DNA of 64,000 bases from Candidatus Curtissbacteria bacterium (GCA_030647775.1 JAUSJC010000010.1:136718-200717), one strand, 5' to 3'; counted from the stretch's first letter, positions 30,812 to 61,822 are shown. Translations and numbers: made by a program. Notes: generated from the sequence alone by a model not told the origin.

Positions 30812-30857
30812 GTCAAAATGCAAAAGTTAAAAATCGAAGATATAAAATCCAAAATTG

Positions 30858-30941
30858 TATCGGGCTTTGCTCGTACAATTTTGTCCACTCAGGGAAAGGG
30901 AATATTAAGGGAAAACCGTTAGGTTGTCCCTTAAAGTGAGT
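30858..30941 (+). promoter_or_regulatory. Structured leader upstream of rpmJ
   Basis: cgggctttgctcgtacaattttgtccactcagggaaagggaatattaagggaaaaccgttaggttgtcccttaaagtgagt. The hairpin ttaaggga...tcccttaa has an inner aacc/ggtt pair. A paralogue lies at 31105-31183. Confidence 0.5.
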
Positions 30942-31055: not shown

Positions 31056-31104
31056 CAAAAATAATGATCGAAATACAAGAATCAAAACTAAAATTAAATT
31101 TGGA

Positions 31105-31183
31105 TCTGGCTTTGCCAGGACAAATTTTTCCGATGAAAGGAGAGGGAATACTAAGGGAGAACCTTGGTGCTCCCTTAGAGTAA
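31105..31183 (+). promoter_or_regulatory. Structured leader upstream of rpsM
   Basis: ctggctttgccaggacaaatttttccgatgaaaggagagggaatactaagggagaaccttggtgctcccttagagtaagt, with the hairpin ctaaggga...tcccttag. Confidence 0.5.
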
Positions 31184-35010: not shown

Positions 35011-35547
35011 ATGCAAATAGGTATTGGAATACTTTTGGAAGAAGATGCTTATAATTACGCTCGAGATTTAGAGTTAAAGATATCCAACCAATTCAACACT
35101 AAAGATGGGTTAAGACAACCACCCCATGTAACGATTAAGCCTCCTTTTGAGGTTAGTTCACTCGAACCATTCATTAGTTATTTTGATACATTGGTTAAGT
35201 CTATTAAGCCTTTCGAATTAGAATTGGGCGGTATAGATTCTTTTGCTCCAAGTGTGATTTATATAAAAGTTACAGAAAACCCAGATCTTGAAAACTTGCA
35301 TTTAAAAATACTTGATGAACTGGAAGAACAATTCGACATTAAACCAAATCAATTTGAAGCAAAAGGGTATGCATTTCATTCAACATTAGCGATGGGTGAT
35401 TTGTCCCAAGATAAGTATGCTAAGGCAATGGAATATTTACAAAAGGAGAATAAATCTTTTAAGTTTAAGTTCACCACGATAGGATTGTTTTATCTGTTTG
35501 AAGAAAAAGATTGGATAGTTATTAGGGTTGGAAAAGTTAAAGGTTAA
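35011..35547 (+). CDS. 2H phosphoesterase superfamily protein (LigT / 2'-5' RNA ligase-like)
   Basis: 178 aa with two H-x-T/S-x motifs (HVTIKPP and HSTLA) at the expected spacing. GC is low. Confidence 0.7.
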   Translation: MQIGIGILLEEDAYNYARDLELKISNQFNTKDGLRQPPHVTIKPPFEVSSLEPFISYFDTLVKSIKPFELELGGIDSFAPSVIYIKVTENPDLENLHLKILDELEEQFDIKPNQFEAKGYAFHSTLAMGDLSQDKYAKAMEYLQKENKSFKFKFTTIGLFYLFEEKDWIVIRVGKVKG

Positions 35548-35557
35548 TGTTGGAGTA

Positions 35558-35587
35558 ATAAGTTCCTAAATAGTCAACCAGTGCCAG
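35558..35587. repeat. Direct repeat right of the 2H-phosphoesterase cassette (abuts the tRNA-Pro 3' end)
   Basis: See 34929-34957. Confidence 0.65.
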
Positions 35588-35613
35588 TCCTAATTTAACC
35601 TCAAAGACAGATG

Positions 35614-35684
35614 TCGGGGAGGGGAGAATCGAACTCCCGATACTGCACCCCCAGCGCAGTGTGTTACCACTATACTACTCCCCG
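35614..35684 (-). tRNA. tRNA-Pro (anticodon GGG)
   Basis: The reverse complement folds as a cloverleaf: CGGGGAG acceptor stem pairing with CTCCCCG, D-loop AGTGGTA, anticodon stem CTGCG/TGCAG with loop CTGGGGG, and T-arm GGGAG-TTCGATT-CTCCC. No CCA is encoded. Confidence 0.75.
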
Positions 35685-35788
35685 GTAAATATCCTTAATC
35701 GATAGCAGATCAACAATCGATAGAAAGTATTATATATCGTCTCGATTAATCAACCAATTATTGACGATCAATGTATAATTAATTAGAC

Positions 35789-35810
35789 TACGATAATACG
35801 TATTATCGTA
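35789..35810. promoter_or_regulatory. 22-bp perfect palindrome upstream of the TrpR/YerC-like gene
   Basis: TACGATAATACGTATTATCGTA, 10 nt before the ATG at 35820. It has the same arms as 36260-36283. Confidence 0.55.
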
Positions 35811-35819
35811 TCAAGAAAG

Positions 35820-36254
35820 ATGGCACAAGTTTCTAAATACCCATTAAACAAAGAAACACAAACGAGATTATATAAACTCCTCTGGCAAGCTATTGTTGCC
35901 CTTAAAGAACCTATCGAAACCGAAGAATTTTTTAATGACCTTTTAACTTCAACAGAAAAGATTATGCTCGCCAAAAGATTAGCGATAGCAGTAATGCTAA
36001 TTAGAGGCTATGATTACGAATCCATAAGAGCGCATCTAAGAGTTAGCCCTGGAACAATTAACTCTGTCTCTACATGGTTAAAATATTCTGGAAGCGGTTA
36101 TAAGGCGACTGTTGAAAGACTATTGAAAAAAGAGAAAGTGGATAATGTATTTGCAAGCATCGAAACCGCCCTAAAAGTTATCAAGCCTGAAAAAACAATT
36201 AGCCGTGCTCTTGCTAAAGGTTATCCCGAGCCAAAAAGAAAAGAACCTTTTTAA
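35820..36254 (+). CDS. TrpR/YerC-YecD family helix-turn-helix protein
   Basis: 144 aa. LLTSTEKIMLAKRLAIAVMLIRGYDYESIRAHLRVSPGTINSV matches the TrpR-like YerC family. Confidence 0.65.
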   Translation: MAQVSKYPLNKETQTRLYKLLWQAIVALKEPIETEEFFNDLLTSTEKIMLAKRLAIAVMLIRGYDYESIRAHLRVSPGTINSVSTWLKYSGSGYKATVERLLKKEKVDNVFASIETALKVIKPEKTISRALAKGYPEPKRKEPF

Positions 36255-36259
36255 TAACA

Positions 36260-36283
36260 CTACGATGATACGAATCATCGTAG
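36260..36283. promoter_or_regulatory. 24-bp palindrome in the recA upstream region
   Basis: CTACGATGAT-acga-ATCATCGTAG, a 10-bp perfect stem, 72 nt before the recA ATG. Its half-sites match those of 35789-35810. Confidence 0.55.
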
Positions 36284-36354
36284 TAGAAATTACTGTATTG
36301 TAATTAGTTGTAGTGTGTAGTAAAAATAGCAATTGTTAAGCCCTACTAACCTTC

Positions 36355-37422
36355 ATGAGTTCTGACGCAAAAAAGCAAGCAATACTAACTGCCATTTCCC
36401 AAATCGAAAAAGCCTACGGCAAAGGCTCCATCATGAAAATGGGGGAATCGCTCGGCAAATTTGATGTTGATGTCCTGTCGACCGGTATTGTTCCGGTTGA
36501 TCTGGCACTCGGGGTTGGTGGGCTTCCCCGCGGACGTATTATCGAAATCTTCGGGCCGGAAGCTTCCGGCAAGACTTCGCTATCTCTTTCAATTATTGCC
36601 GAGGCGCAAAAAACCGGCGGTAGCGCTGCCCTAATTGATGCCGAGCATGCCCTGGACCCGGTCTGGGCCGAAAAAGTTGGAGTTAATTTAGAAGATTTGT
36701 TAATCTCTCAACCCGATACCGGTGAACAGGCGCTCGAGATTACCGAGACCTTAATTCGCTCCGGCGCCATCGATGTCATCGTCATCGATTCCGTTGCCGC
36801 CCTCGTGCCCCGTGCCGAAATCGAAGGCGAAATGGGAGATTCAATGATGGGCGTCCAGGCGCGTCTTATGTCCCAAGCCCTTCGAAAATTAACAGGCGCC
36901 ATTTCCAAATCAAAGACCGTTGCCATATTCACAAACCAGCTCAGGGAAAAAATCGGTGTCATGTTTGGTAACCCGGAAGTTACCCCCGGCGGCCGTGCCC
37001 TTAAATTCTACTCATCAGTCCGCTTAGATATTAGAAAAATTGACAATATTAAAGAAGGCGACAAAGTTACCGGGAGTCGCCATCGGGTAAAAGTTGTTAA
37101 AAACAAAGTCGCTCCGCCATTTAGGATTGCCGAGTTTGATATTATGAACGAAGAAGGTATTTCCAGAGAAGGCGGCCTTTTGGACGTTGGAGTGGAACTT
37201 GGGATTATCGGCAAATCCGGCGCCTTTTACCGTTGGGGGACAAAATTGATCGGACAAGGCAAAGAAAGCGCCAAAGAATATCTTAAAGAACATAAAAAAG
37301 AAGCAGCTGCACTGGAAAAAGAAATTTGGGTGAAAGCCAAAAAAGGCTTAAGCGCAAAACCTGTTAAAGTAGTTACAGACGATGAAGACGAAGAAGAAAT
37401 ACTAGAAGCAGCTGCAGTTTAA
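36355..37422 (+). CDS. recA: Recombinase RecA
   Basis: 355 aa. GPEASGKTS Walker [13 protein letters not shown] and the L2 loop. Confidence 0.97.
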
Positions 37423-37424
37423 AC

Positions 37425-38081
37425 GTGCCGCAAGTTACTGCTATCTCTCCCCAAAAGAAAAAATCCGGCCGGTTTAATTTATTCCTAGACGGAAAATTCG
37501 CTTTAGGAATTGAAGGCGAGACGCTTCTCGCCTCGGGTTTAAAAATCGGCAGAGTCTTAAGCGGGGAAGAAATTTCCAAAATTATCAAAAAAGAGCAAGG
37601 CACAAAACTTCTGGATCTGGCCACGAATTTTTTATCTTTTAGGCCCAGAAGCGAAAAAGAGGTCAGGGATTATTTAATTAAAAAAATATCGACCCGCGAG
37701 AACATCAAATTTTCCGAAGCCCGGGAAAGCCCGCTCATAGATCAGGTTATTGAAAAGCTCGCACGGTATAAATACCTGAATGATTTGGAATTTGCCAAGT
37801 GGTTCATGGCGTCGAGAACATCTTCTCACCCAAAGGGCTTGGCGCTTATAAAATTAGAGCTCAAAAGAAAAGGTATAACCCAGGAGATTATCGATAAAGT
37901 CTCCGCTTCTTCTTCAAATGAACGAGACTTAGCCAGAAGAGCAGTCGAAAAAAAGGTCAAAAGATGGCAAAACCTTCCGGTCTTGGAATTTAAAAAGAAG
38001 TTTTATCAATACCTGGCCAGTCGCGGTTTTGACTTTGATACTATCCGGGAAACATTTGCCTTTTTTACTAAAAAGAGCTAA
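37425..38081 (+). CDS. recX: Recombination regulator RecX
   Basis: 218 aa helical-repeat protein immediately after recA, GTG start. RecX-like LxxRxxSExEV repeats. Confidence 0.85.
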   Translation: MPQVTAISPQKKKSGRFNLFLDGKFALGIEGETLLASGLKIGRVLSGEEISKIIKKEQGTKLLDLATNFLSFRPRSEKEVRDYLIKKISTRENIKFSEARESPLIDQVIEKLARYKYLNDLEFAKWFMASRTSSHPKGLALIKLELKRKGITQEIIDKVSASSSNERDLARRAVEKKVKRWQNLPVLEFKKKFYQYLASRGFDFDTIRETFAFFTKKS

Positions 38082-43449: not shown

Positions 43450-45099
43450 TTGCAGATGTCTAGATCAGAGAAGTTATATTTTTTACTAACCTTTGGCATT
43501 TTCGGCTTCCTTTATTTTCACATGAGTCAAAATATGCTCCAGATAAAACCGGACGGGTGGTATGTAGGTCACATTAACCTCTACGGCGATTTAGTTTTTC
43601 ACCTGACCCTAATTAATAAATTTCTATCGTCAAATAAATTCGTCATCGACAACCCGATTATGGCTGGGACCAAAGTGGGTTATCCAATACTTGCCGATTT
43701 AATAACTGCTCAAATTGCCAGAGTTACGAATTTAAGTTTCGCCCTATTTATAACGACTTTTTCGATCGGGCTTCTCGGGATTTACACGGCCAGACTTTTT
43801 ATTAAAAATTTCTTTAAAAATGAAAAAATAGTTTTTCTTTCTCTTTTATTATTTTTTGTTAATGGCGGATTTGGATTTTATTATTTCTTTCAGGATCTAT
43901 TTTTTTCACAAAAACCGCTTCTTAAATTTCTTACGAGTTTGCCGCGTCAATATACCGATATCAAAGAGAACGGTTACTGGTGGATCAATACTTATTTGGC
44001 ATATTTTTTGCCCCAAAGATCCTTCCTTTTCGTTTTCCCACTCACTTTAGTAGTTTTAATTCTTTTGTATAGGGGAGCAAAGGCAAATCGGAGAAAATAT
44101 TTTTTCCTTGCCGGGCTTCTTTCGGGAGTTTTACCACTGGTGCAAGCACATAGCTTGTTCTTTGTATTTTTAATCTCACTCATGGTTTGCCCGCTTTCTA
44201 TTCTTAAGTCTAAGAACCAAAAAGCAATGCTTGGGAATTGGCTCATTTTTGCACTGATTACCGCATTTTTGTCTGTACCAATCTTGACGGCGATTGCGCC
44301 TTCTCAAAACTTTTTACATTTCATAGCGTATAAACCGGGCTGGACCGCTGGAGAAAACATTATTTGGTTTTGGCTAAAAAATCTTGGGTTATTTGCTCCG
44401 ATGCTTGTTATTTCGCTTATATGGCTCTTCAAAAAAAATAAAAATCTTTTCTATATCTATTTACCATTCCTTGCCGTTTTTATACTTTCAAACATTTTCA
44501 TCTTCCAGCCCTGGGATTTTGATAACAGCAAACTTTTAGTTTACTGGTTTTTTGCATCTTGCATTGTCGTTGCCTATTTTCTCTATGACCAATTTTTCCT
44601 GGAAACTTTTTTTAAAAAAATCGCAGGGGTCGTTATTGTGTTTTTAATGATTTTTGCCGGTTCTATTGATATATTCCGAACCTTTACACCGGCCACAAAT
44701 TATAGAATTTTTTCAAATCAGGATCTTGAAGTGGCGGACAATATCAAAAAGGCTACTTCCAAAGATTCTATATTTGTTACGGCCTCAAACCATAATAACC
44801 CAATTGCCGCCATAAGCGGCAGGTCAATCTTTTTAGGATTTGCAGGCTGGCTTTGGAGTCATGGAGTTGACTATAGCCAAAGAGAAAAAGACGTCCGCCT
44901 AATTTATTTAGGCGGACAAGAGTCAGAGTCTTTAATAAAACAATACGGAATAAATTATGTTACCATTGGCCCACAAGAAAGGGCACAGTTTTCAATAAAT
45001 GAAAGTTACTTCCAAAAATACCCAAGTCTCACCCCGGGCGAAGGTTGGCAAATTATCGATGTTAGTAGTATTTGGACCAACGTCGACAGGCAAAACTAA
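43450..45099 (+). CDS. Polytopic membrane protein, possibly a second GT-C-type glycosyltransferase
   Basis: 549 aa with about 12 predicted TM segments. It is divergent from the GT39 gene. No confident family. Confidence 0.5.
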   Translation: MQMSRSEKLYFLLTFGIFGFLYFHMSQNMLQIKPDGWYVGHINLYGDLVFHLTLINKFLSSNKFVIDNPIMAGTKVGYPILADLITAQIARVTNLSFALFITTFSIGLLGIYTARLFIKNFFKNEKIVFLSLLLFFVNGGFGFYYFFQDLFFSQKPLLKFLTSLPRQYTDIKENGYWWINTYLAYFLPQRSFLFVFPLTLVVLILLYRGAKANRRKYFFLAGLLSGVLPLVQAHSLFFVFLISLMVCPLSILKSKNQKAMLGNWLIFALITAFLSVPILTAIAPSQNFLHFIAYKPGWTAGENIIWFWLKNLGLFAPMLVISLIWLFKKNKNLFYIYLPFLAVFILSNIFIFQPWDFDNSKLLVYWFFASCIVVAYFLYDQFFLETFFKKIAGVVIVFLMIFAGSIDIFRTFTPATNYRIFSNQDLEVADNIKKATSKDSIFVTASNHNNPIAAISGRSIFLGFAGWLWSHGVDYSQREKDVRLIYLGGQESESLIKQYGINYVTIGPQERAQFSINESYFQKYPSLTPGEGWQIIDVSSIWTNVDRQN

Positions 45100-45997
45100 T
45101 CTGGCAATTTCTCTTGCTAAAAAATTTAACGGTGAGTTAATTTCTGCCGATTCCCGCCAGGTTTACAAAAATCTCGATATTGGAACCGGCAAAGTAAGCC
45201 CCGAATCAAAAATAAAAAAGCACAGTAAGTATTGGAAAGTAGACGGGATAAAAATTCACGGCTTTGACTTAGTAGAACCTGGCGATTGTTTCACGGTTTT
45301 TGATTTCCTAAAATTCGCAACCGACAAAATCAACGATTTAAAAAAACAACAAAAACTGCCAATAATTGTTGGGGGTACTGCCTTTTACATAAATGCTCTA
45401 TTAAAAGGGGTAGATACAGAAGGTATCGCTCCAAATTATAAACTAAGGTCAGTTCTGGAAAAGCTAAGCATACCGGACCTTTACAAAAAGCTTCTAAATA
45501 TTAATCCACAAAAAGCTACCTCTTTGAATCAGTCAGATAAAAATAACCCTAGGCGCTTGATAAGGGCAATCGAAATAAATCTTTCCAAAGTAAATCAGCA
45601 CAAGAGCCCCAGGCCAATTACGGAGCGGCTGTTAACAGTGGGCTTAACTGCCCCCAACGATTATCTCTATACAACCGCCGACAAGTGGCTCAAGGCAAGA
45701 TTAGACCAGGGCATGATCCAGGAGGTCGGGAGTCTGATTAAAAGTGGTGTAAACGGGGTTTGGCTGGATAATCTAGGTTTAGAATATCGGTGGATTACCA
45801 GATACATACAAGGGCAGATCAGCTTAGATGATGCGTTGGAAAGATTAAAGGGCGATATTCATGGTCTGATAAGGAGACAAAAAACCTGGTTTCCGAAATT
45901 CGAAGATATGAAAGTCTTCGACATAACAAATAGTAACTGGAGACAAGAATTAGAAAAAACCATCTCTCTCCAGGATTTGCCAATATCTCACTCCTGA
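45059..45997 (+). CDS. miaA: tRNA dimethylallyltransferase
   Basis: The conserved start MLVVFGPTSTGKT (P-loop) is at ATG 45059. It overlaps the upstream membrane-protein ORF by 41 nt. Confidence 0.9.
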   Translation: MLVVFGPTSTGKTNLAISLAKKFNGELISADSRQVYKNLDIGTGKVSPESKIKKHSKYWKVDGIKIHGFDLVEPGDCFTVFDFLKFATDKINDLKKQQKLPIIVGGTAFYINALLKGVDTEGIAPNYKLRSVLEKLSIPDLYKKLLNINPQKATSLNQSDKNNPRRLIRAIEINLSKVNQHKSPRPITERLLTVGLTAPNDYLYTTADKWLKARLDQGMIQEVGSLIKSGVNGVWLDNLGLEYRWITRYIQGQISLDDALERLKGDIHGLIRRQKTWFPKFEDMKVFDITNSNWRQELEKTISLQDLPISHS

Positions 45998-61227: not shown

Positions 61228-61249
61228 CCACTAATATACTAGTATATTA

Positions 61250-61822
61250 GTGCCAAACAACATGAATAAAATTAGGCCAAAAGACCTGGTTGTCGTCACA
61301 AGCAATATTAGTAAACTGGCGGAGATTAATCAGATTCTTGGCACGAGTCACAAAGTATCAACGCTCGATGTCCCAGAAATCCAGTCACTCAATCTTAATG
61401 AAGTAATTACGGCTAAAGCAAAAACCGCTTACGAAAAAATTAAAAAACCGGTTTTAGTAACTGATGTAAGTTTAGAAATTGAAGCATTGGGAGGCCTACC
61501 CGGCCCATTCGTAAAATTCTTTCTAAAAACTTTGGGAGCCGAAAAAACCGTTAGCCTTATTAAAGGAAAGAACACTAAAACTAAAGTTACCGACGCCATT
61601 GCCCTCTACGACGGCAAAAGCCTCAAAATTTTTAAAGGTGAAGTTCATGGTCATTTAATATCAAAGGCCAGAGGCAGTCACGGTTTTGGATTCGACTTTG
61701 TTTTTGTTCCGGACGGATACGAAAAAACTTACTCCGAAATGTCACCAACAGAAAAAAATAAAATTTCCCACCGCGCCCTGGCATTAAAAAAACTCAAAAA
61801 ATATTTATCCCATGTATCTTAG
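61250..61822 (+). CDS. rdgB: Non-canonical purine NTP pyrophosphatase (Ham1/RdgB family)
   Basis: 190 aa. FGFDFVFVPDGYEKTYSEMSPTEKNKISHRALALKKL. Confidence 0.88.
   Translation: MPNNMNKIRPKDLVVVTSNISKLAEINQILGTSHKVSTLDVPEIQSLNLNEVITAKAKTAYEKIKKPVLVTDVSLEIEALGGLPGPFVKFFLKTLGAEKTVSLIKGKNTKTKVTDAIALYDGKSLKIFKGEVHGHLISKARGSHGFGFDFVFVPDGYEKTYSEMSPTEKNKISHRALALKKLKKYLSHVS

Follow-up and report, generated by a model that had tools for sequence, protein, structure and literature searches.

A TrpR-like regulator gene bracketed by two operator-like palindromes upstream of recA in a Candidatus Curtissbacteria genome

A 64,000-nucleotide stretch of Candidatus Curtissbacteria DNA (GCA_030647775.1 JAUSJC010000010.1:136718-200717; the window, hereafter) carries the gene of a TrpR/YerC-like regulator with a palindrome on each side, the second of them lying between the regulator gene and recA. 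The question raised by this locus is whether the downstream palindrome serves recA and recX, as the initial annotation had proposed in postulating a LexA-independent DNA-damage regulon, or belongs to the regulator gene itself. Comparison with related loci leads us to consider it probable that the locus is a self-bracketed, autoregulated repressor cassette in which the downstream palindrome would act as an auxiliary operator or roadblock. Its position beside recA looks incidental, and the locus does not look like a new DNA-damage circuit. The upstream and downstream palindromes are called O1 and O2, and L-numbers designate the individual loci compared. The elements of the cassette are the following.

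35788..35811, no strand: O1, upstream operator-like palindrome (pattern scans, equivalents in relatives)
35820..36254, plus strand: gene of a 144-residue YerC/HisR-type protein of the TrpR family (Pfam, NCBIfam, PDB profile, AlphaFold2, Foldseek)
36259..36284, no strand: O2, downstream operator-like palindrome ACTACGATGAT-ACGA-ATCATCGTAGT (sequence reading, pattern scan)

The core of O1, TACGATAATACGTATTATCGTA at 35789-35810, reads as a perfect 22-bp palindrome (24 bp as 35788-35811), and its end is separated by 9 nt from the regulator ATG at 35820. O2 has the inner form CTACGATGAT-ACGA-ATCATCGTAG at 36260-36283, extended by one extra pair on each side to ACTACGATGATACGAATCATCGTAGT at 36259-36284; its start is 5 nt past the regulator stop codon (36252-36254), and 70 nt separate its end from the ATG of recA (36355). 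The pattern TACGATRAT-N0-6-ATYATCGTA was matched twice in the window, in comparison with 0.00 matches expected from shuffles. No further site with three or fewer mismatches to the O1 22-mer was found in the 64 kb, both known sites being at the regulator gene.

The encoded protein was assigned to the Trp_repressor family of Pfam (PF01371; E 5e-13, 49.3 bits against a cut-off of 27) and to the YerC/YecD family of NCBIfam (TIGR02531; 49.8 bits against a curated cut-off of 42.2), so that the description of a TrpR/YerC-like gene flanked by two near-identical palindromes was borne out. The family profile also matched the PDB entries 3G1C, 3FRW and 3KOR, with E values from 3e-14 to 1e-12. In the AlphaFold2 model (predicted local distance difference test score, pLDDT, 78 overall and >90 over residues 11-90), a TrpR-like helical core is followed by an extra helix at residues 108-120 and by a disordered basic tail ending in a conserved Phe. 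Foldseek ranked 3KOR, 3G1C and 3FRW first, in this order (target template modelling score, TM, 0.80-0.90), and then E. coli TrpR; model and search agree on a TrpR-like all-helical fold with a helix-turn-helix (HTH). Trp_repressor is the sole Pfam domain of the regulator, whose C-terminus consists of one helix and the disordered tail, and the S24 self-cleavage domain of LexA-type proteins is absent. The predicted protein belongs to the YerC/HisR branch of the TrpR family, in a C-terminally extended form of the Patescibacteria type. Its relatives amount to at least 156 clusters (50% identity) when E ≤ 1e-30 is required, and to 1,598 when the limit is E ≤ 1e-10; up to three paralogs occur per genome.

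Two short segments of the protein are almost invariant across the family: the N-terminus MxQVS(K/R)YP (residues 1-8, window 35820-35843) and, in spite of the predicted disorder, the last residue, Phe, in the K/R-rich tail ...(K/R)xF (residues 121-144, window 36180-36251). Such a tail might contact DNA as an arm, or serve as a motif that binds a partner.

Relatives were collected through a scan of one genome per species, and the best 80 of 172 were kept as loci; all taxon-labelled relatives among these 80 were Patescibacteria. Twin sites were recorded when the central 18 bp recurred with three or fewer mismatches, one copy at most 140 nt before the start and one at most 140 nt after the stop. 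Such sites surround the gene, which encodes a protein of about 147 residues, in 56 of the 77 Patescibacteria loci with complete flanks, and their centres usually fall 13-25 nt before the ATG (O1-type) and 13-21 nt after the stop (O2-type). The O2-type copy was detected in 36/52 of the loci whose next gene is co-directional and in 18/23 of those whose next gene is convergent. Since it is found whatever the neighbour and its orientation, O2 is tied to the regulator gene and not to the gene that follows. Among the best 80 of 172 relatives, recA-recX lies downstream only in the Curtissbacteria loci L001-L004; elsewhere this place is occupied by recR, cysS, metG, tatD, a P-type ATPase gene or Fe-S assembly genes. 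No his gene adjoined any of about 80 loci or lay near the solitary sites described below, and a histidine regulon is therefore not indicated.

The sequence of the sites changes from locus to locus, with the two sites of a locus remaining alike. Each of the Curtissbacteria variants (CTACGATGAT-N4-ATCATCGTAG, TCCAATGATACAAATCATTGGA, CTTTAATGAATTGAATCATTAAAG and GATGAATCGAATCATC) occurs at both positions of its own locus, and the same is true of the Levybacteria variants ...ATGATATATATCAT..., ...ATGATACGTATCAT... and ...ATGATTTAAATCAT.... Three paralogs of one metagenome-assembled genome (L012, L025 and L026) have a separate site centre each. In comparison with L001, the window has a 94% identical RecA and a regulator of only 67% identity, the palindromes differ at both positions, and the recognition helices read RVSPGTINSVS in the window against QVSSATISSVS. 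Similarly, L129 has a 99% identical RecA, an identical tRNA, a regulator of only 69% identity, and changes at both sites. Among Levybacteria, helices with TPPTIA pair with ATAT centres and those with TP(S/T)TIA with ACGT centres. Furthermore, half-sites of HisR, the homolog in Bacillus subtilis, appear in many family sites as CACTTTA-N14-TAAAGTG, about 8 bp wider than the HisR operator. The operator-like sites of the family, at which binding is predicted, are dyad-symmetric and span 22-36 bp. Symmetry is kept through the centre, pairs 2-4 being mismatched in only 1-4 of 58 sites (58 twin-site loci), and the sense-strand mismatches in these loci comprise 28 G.U vs 38 A.C, that is, no excess of G.U. 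With this central symmetry and no wobble bias of the RNA type, the sites look like double-stranded DNA sites for a dimer. The joint change is best explained if one sequence-specific factor reads O1 and O2, and the encoded protein is the best candidate for this factor. The proposals that a single DNA-binding protein recognises both sites, and that the adjacent HTH protein autoregulates, are in this way supported by site pairs that change together across orthologous loci, by a recognition helix that changes with them and by the HisR half-sites of the family.

Upstream of the regulator gene, a promoter could be placed with respect to O1.

35761..35789, plus strand: regulator promoter-like site TTGACG-17 nt-TAGACT (consensus scan, 9/12 matches; inferred)

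This sigma-70-like site abuts O1, and transcription is therefore expected to start inside O1, which overlaps the last bases of the −10 hexamer as well. TTGACA-type hexamers occupy the equivalent place in L002-L005 and L108, and equivalents of O1 itself are present in L001-L005, L116-L120, L129 and most family loci. As for O2, it has no T tract, its stem being followed by AGAAATTACTG, and it lacks the combination of G+C-rich stem and T tract that defines an intrinsic (Rho-independent) terminator. A terminator scan of the window gave no terminator-like site between the regulator gene and recA, and across the family intrinsic terminators follow O2 in 2/58 loci, about the background level.

Shown here are the anatomy of the locus, its conservation throughout the family, the parallel change of the two sites and a symmetry of the DNA type; binding by the regulator, repression and the role of O2 are predictions. 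A dimeric regulator, possibly as two dimers, would bind the dyad-symmetric double-stranded sites that bracket its own gene, with the help of an assumed co-repressor. As O1 extends over the last bases of the −10 hexamer and over the expected start of transcription, the regulator bound there would repress its own synthesis, as its position and the precedent of the family suggest. O2 would be part of the regulator cassette and not of recA; its independence of the neighbour and the lack of terminators point to an auxiliary operator or roadblock, which would limit transcription from the cassette into the neighbour (here recA-recX) or reinforce autorepression. On this model recA-recX would be affected at most indirectly, via read-through, their own promoter-like block lying further downstream.

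Several observations weigh against the autoregulated cassette. Mutual information between protein columns and half-site bases gave only a weak enrichment near the recognition helix, and this enrichment is confounded by phylogeny. In L102, O1 is found some 90 nt ahead of the ATG, and across the family the −10 hexamer has no constant place relative to O1; promoter calls are weak and noisy in this AT-rich DNA. The distances between O1 and O2 centres (454-541 bp) showed no 10-12 bp periodicity, in a test of low power at this length, and thus lend no support to looping. In addition, an autoregulator leaves unexplained the solitary 26-bp palindromes inside coding regions of relatives and the presence or absence of the cassette between near-identical strains (L108 and L082, with recA 97% identical). 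Neither does it account for the orientation of asymmetric centres (ACGA, ACAA, TTGA and others), which is the same in O1 and O2 of 9 loci (L001, L003, L007, L008, L030, L046 and L057, plus the added L118 and L120) and opposite in 2 (L035 and L053). In Curtissbacteria-type sites, ACGA stands in the sense direction of the associated gene. The shared orientation could result from copying between O1 and O2, or from a polarity relative to transcription.

The palindrome is also found away from regulator genes. An exact-pattern scan of metagenome contigs returned 35 loci, about ten of which are regulator loci, with recA adjoining or not. About twenty contigs carry the 26-bp palindrome ACTACGATGATACG(W)ATCATCGTAGT, or the variant GTTACGAT...ATCGTAAC, within unrelated flanks and with no regulator gene nearby. 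These solitary sites are mostly of three kinds: at 2-18 nt from a start or stop codon, in the space that separates convergent genes, and within genes. Thus, copies were found between convergent nudix and femAB-family genes, between mvaD and uppS, upstream of alaS beside a toxin-antitoxin pair, and inside the coding regions of miaA (three species, same codons), cysS, a trxB-like gene and recJ. The intragenic copies are listed here by locus and position.

L085 4993, L104 4060 and L113 389: copies inside miaA
L093 1943: copy inside cysS
L111/L112: copies inside the trxB-like gene
L106 5700: copy inside recJ
L015 1533: copy inside a GT1 glycosyltransferase gene

Intragenic palindromes are in frame and leave the protein length unchanged, with TTMIRIIVV encoded in both miaA and cysS. 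The miaA gene of the window (45047-45991) has the same length and no palindrome, and its product reads TDKINDLKKQ where those of the relatives read HTTMIRIIVV. In sample Ga0209211, the outer variant GTTACGAT...ATCGTAAC is common to the regulator locus L102 and to the solitary sites L099 and L106.

Two further observations concern such copies. Contigs L086, L091, L100, L105 and L111 begin within 30-200 nt of a palindrome, a hint that assembly tends to stop at this place, as would happen if the 26-mer were present several times in one genome or shared by co-occurring genomes. In the window, a perfect 24-bp palindrome, CACTAATATACTAGTATATTAGTG, is located at 61229-61252, between guaA, whose stop codon is 1 nt away, and a Ham1/RdgB-type gene, whose ATG follows at 9 nt. 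Its ends, CACT...AGTG, are typical of YerC-family operators, there is no regulator gene nearby, and no match to it was found in 115 loci; a paralog with its gene in another part of the genome may use it as a solitary site.

Solitary copies could mean that the protein is a genome-wide binder that punctuates gene boundaries and some coding regions, either as a conditional roadblock terminator or as a nucleoid organiser like ParB/parS or Noc; the pair of sites around the regulator gene would then be just a local instance. This explanation, which we regard as rather improbable, accommodates the roughly twenty contigs with an identical palindrome and no regulator gene nearby, the variant shared by L102, L099 and L106, and the family-style palindrome past guaA. 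It is at odds with the low density of the sites: the two in 64 kb are both at the regulator gene, and none beyond O1 and O2 was found in 16-20 kb of L118 and L120. The same counts, of which that for the 64 kb holds even at three mismatches, do not fit a dispersed element of the repetitive extragenic palindromic (REP) type.

The relation of O2 to recA was analysed with the features that border the cassette.

35613..35684, minus strand: tRNA-Pro(GGG), divergent from the regulator gene, at the left edge of the cassette slot (ARAGORN; Rfam tRNA, 55.7 bits)
36298..36327, plus strand: conserved recA promoter-like block TTGTAA-14 nt-TAGTAAAAAT (conservation; promoter function inferred)
36355..37422, plus strand: recA, downstream neighbour, not assumed to be a target (Pfam RecA, E 2e-131)
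37425..38081, plus strand: recX (Pfam RecX HTH1, HTH2, HTH3)

Rfam gave no match in this region besides the tRNA, and recX is probably co-transcribed with recA, given the 2-nt gap between them. The initial annotation had placed the second palindrome in the recA promoter region. O2 does lie between the regulator stop codon and recA, but upstream of the conserved promoter-like block and not within it, the −35-like hexamer of the block being at 36298-36303. This block scores under the threshold of the consensus scan; its consensus, CTTGTAttttt...TRTAGTAAAAnTAG, is found in all Curtissbacteria recA loci examined, with the regulator present or absent. The gap from the end of O2 to the block is 13, 13, 13, 24, ~27, ~33, 36, 37 and ~42 nt across species, and in those loci O2 is constantly 2-8 nt from the regulator stop codon. 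Four Curtissbacteria loci, L121-L124 (RecA 83-86% identical to that of the window), have no regulator gene and no palindrome; they show the gene order of the window (rpsI, tRNA, recA, recX, rny, hup), with the recA block directly after the tRNA. L108 likewise has no regulator gene, and a single palindrome, 100 nt upstream of recA, stands where L082 has O1, gene and O2. From these regulator-less relatives and L108 it follows that the palindromes travel with the regulator gene and that recA does not need them.

We consequently find little room for a LexA-like, damage-responsive repressor with O2 as the operator of recA-recX and the palindrome as the mark of a LexA-independent DNA-repair regulon, and hold this explanation to be quite improbable. 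The order regulator-O2-recA-recX is kept in at least nine Curtissbacteria loci, the L108 palindrome persists upstream of recA with no regulator gene, and a solitary copy lies inside recJ. The reported lack of a LexA box was also confirmed, as no CGAAC-N4-GTTCG box was found near recA, and neither a LexA box nor a lexA homolog in the 64-kb window. These points are countered by the family-wide presence of O2, tied to the regulator stop codon whatever follows, and by the four Curtissbacteria loci that have equal synteny and the recA block with neither regulator nor palindrome. Moreover, at a variable 13-42 nt upstream of the −35-like hexamer, O2 is off the core promoter, which is where a LexA-type operator covers recA and other repair genes, and the regulator has neither an S24 domain nor another known damage sensor. 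L108 differs from the regulator-bearing strain by only 3% in recA, so that the retention of its palindrome says little about selection. Among the other copies of the palindrome, found in metagenome contigs, only one lies in a repair gene (recJ), most others being at non-repair genes (miaA, cysS, trxB-like, uppS/mvaD, alaS, nudix). Altogether, control of recA-recX and a DNA-damage regulon are unsupported; the contexts of the solitary sites do not form a DNA-repair regulon, and the regulator may have further targets and possibly a broader role. Sanchez-Osuna et al. are said to have made, in 2017, a comparative study of the SOS network of Patescibacteria.

The differences among strains and species described above show a cassette that is fast-evolving or exchangeable. 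Identities of the regulator and of RecA are incongruent (r = 0.21), and the distribution of the cassette within Curtissbacteria, beside a tRNA gene, is patchy. Comparison of L108 1842-2010 with L082 and L109 shows one palindrome left at the junction; the 36 nt after this palindrome had no match in any fetched locus. On the other side of the slot, the region upstream of the shared tRNA-Pro (window 35100-35600 vs L129 1-520) is unrelated in spite of the 99% RecA identity: the window has there a gene of the 2'-5' RNA ligase family, and L129 another open reading frame (ORF). The tRNA therefore marks a recombination-prone boundary.

On such grounds, the palindrome-gene-palindrome unit could be a present or past mobile or recombining cassette. 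The palindromes would be recombination or target sites, the flanking copies would come from insertion at a pre-existing palindrome, and solitary palindromes would be empty or remnant sites. Consistent with this are the presence/absence difference between L108 and L082 with its single palindrome at the junction, the patchy distribution beside a tRNA gene, the incongruent regulator and recA trees (in L129, RecA 99% vs regulator 69%), the mostly direct-repeat orientation of asymmetric centres, the metagenome contigs that break at the palindrome, and the identical 26-bp palindromes at unrelated loci whose flanks share nothing. The idea nevertheless has, in our view, only a slim chance of being right. 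No recombinase or transposase was found in the cassette or consistently adjacent to it in the family and Curtissbacteria loci, and contexts are not varied: regulator sequence P0077 had one genomic context on all 24 contigs read, which speaks against recent transposition, and orthologous contexts do not change from genus to genus (recR...cysS in Levybacteria, rpsI...recA in Curtissbacteria). Most centres are symmetric and so provide no polarity for site-specific recombination. Intragenic palindromes replace codons at constant length, unlike insertions. At their junctions, moreover, L108 and L082 have some 36 nt that are not related in sequence, so that this event was no clean site-to-site recombination.

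Finally, a very improbable reading, in which no protein-DNA recognition takes place and O1 is a 5' stem-loop masking the ribosome-binding region and O2 a 3' stabiliser or terminator of the regulator mRNA, would suit the folding of both in RNA (O1, −8.6 kcal/mol, z −2.3; O2, −18.1 kcal/mol, z −4.8), their places against the start and stop codons and the rarity of intrinsic terminators after O2, but was rejected on the symmetry that persists through the two innermost pairs, the would-be loop, and on the G.U count, which does not exceed that of A.C; besides, it gives no reason for the shared sequence and joint change of O1 and O2, O2 has no T tract, and the predicted transcription start is inside the O1 of the window, so that only half of O1 would be transcribed.

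Apart from the cassette, two similar leaders of ~110 nt were observed in the window at 30818-30940 and 31064-31183, just before the start codons of rpmJ and rpsM. Each ends in a hairpin (30905-30934 and 31151-31178) with a 13-bp stem, YTAAGGGRRAACC...GGTNNTCCCTTAR, that includes a Shine-Dalgarno-like AAGGGAG. The same type of hairpin was seen in relatives before rpsM and before hup (L116 4484-4512, L118 14078-14107). The rpmJ and rpsM leaders matched no Rfam family and may represent an undescribed ribosomal-protein leader.

With the SOS-like claim falling, it is the family-wide layout of the autoregulated cassette and its lability that merit follow-up. The protein family is already known; for Patescibacteria, we found no description in the literature of self-bracketing twin operators, of the 45-residue extension, of paralog-specific sites or of coding-embedded copies, and the twin-operator layout is apparently undescribed in this group. 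In these uncultured bacteria of tiny genomes, almost nothing is known on the control of transcription, and this regulator family may be among the main ones. The predicted operator of each member can be read from the DNA flanking its own gene, which gives testable predictions of binding and regulon. A tempting claim, recA under a new LexA-independent damage regulator, is removed, as close relatives run recA from an equal block with neither regulator nor sites. In addition, the fast joint change of the protein and both operators at 94-99% RecA identity amounts to a natural series of specificity swaps, useful for studying repressor-operator divergence. A more ambitious proposal, which we consider unlikely, is that of a large Patescibacteria family of self-bracketed TrpR-like cassettes, in which a private palindrome marks both ends of each gene, further copies stand at other gene boundaries and in frame within housekeeping genes, and near-identical strains gain, lose or swap cassettes exactly at the palindromes. 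If true, it would mean either that, where intrinsic terminators are scarce, a protein punctuates transcription by means of conditional roadblock terminators or insulators, or that there is a palindrome-targeted copy-and-exchange mechanism not yet described.

Among known systems, YerC of B. subtilis is HisR, a histidine-dependent repressor of the 20-bp palindrome cacTTTA-N6-TAAAgtg, which is nearly always single-copy and whose gene is itself preceded by a site in about half of the genomes (PMC9413887). The regulator studied here resembles HisR in its Pfam and NCBIfam family, its fold, its predicted palindromic operator and the frequent autoregulation predicted from an upstream site, and the outer half-sites CACTTTA/TAAAGTG recur in many Patescibacteria members. 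On the other hand, it is about 45 residues longer, with the extra helix and the basic tail; its sites span 22-36 bp, and their half-sites are spaced ~8 bp more widely than those of the 20-bp HisR site; the site is repeated after the stop codon; the neighbours are not histidine genes; and a genome may have as many as three paralogs, which do not share their sites.

The co-repressor is tryptophan for TrpR and histidine for HisR, and the trp operator of E. coli is GTACTAGTTAACTAGTAC. The likeness to E. coli TrpR lies in the dimeric all-helical repressor fold (TM 0.7-0.8), in the dyad symmetry of the predicted operators and in a presumed negative autoregulation, as at trpR; identity is about 21%, and there is no evidence here for a tryptophan ligand. 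To our knowledge, no TrpR operator occurs downstream of trpR. The sites of L077 and L079, GTACTACAGTTAACTGTAGTAC, resemble the trp operator GTACTAGTTAACTAGTAC, judged from its sequence and the consensus of the HisR paper. For the longer sites of this family, the tandem binding of TrpR dimers with an 8-bp offset (PDB 1TRR) is no more than a possible analogy.

With LexA and the SOS response, the locus has in common that a palindromic site precedes recA and that another precedes the gene of the regulator. It differs in having no S24 peptidase domain, in a site that is off the core promoter and absent from recA in close relatives, and in that no repair regulon is evident. Like REP sequences and bacterial interspersed mosaic elements (BIME), the palindromes are short, stand at gene ends, including between convergent genes, and have identical copies at unrelated loci. 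Unlike these elements, they number only 2 in 64 kb, are perfectly symmetric through the centre and co-vary in sequence with the adjacent DNA-binding protein, and some copies are inside ORFs with no change of length.

Auxiliary operators that flank genes or lie inside them are known for lambda CI (OL/OR), LacI (O1/O2/O3) and GalR (OE/OI), and repression by roadblock for CcpA and CodY. The cassette has in common with these systems at least two operator copies a few hundred bp apart, one of them outside the promoter, and sites within coding regions. No helical phasing was detected here, and the pair of sites, in contrast with those of the auxiliary-operator systems, stands around the ORF of the regulator itself, with constant spacing to its start and stop codons throughout the protein family.

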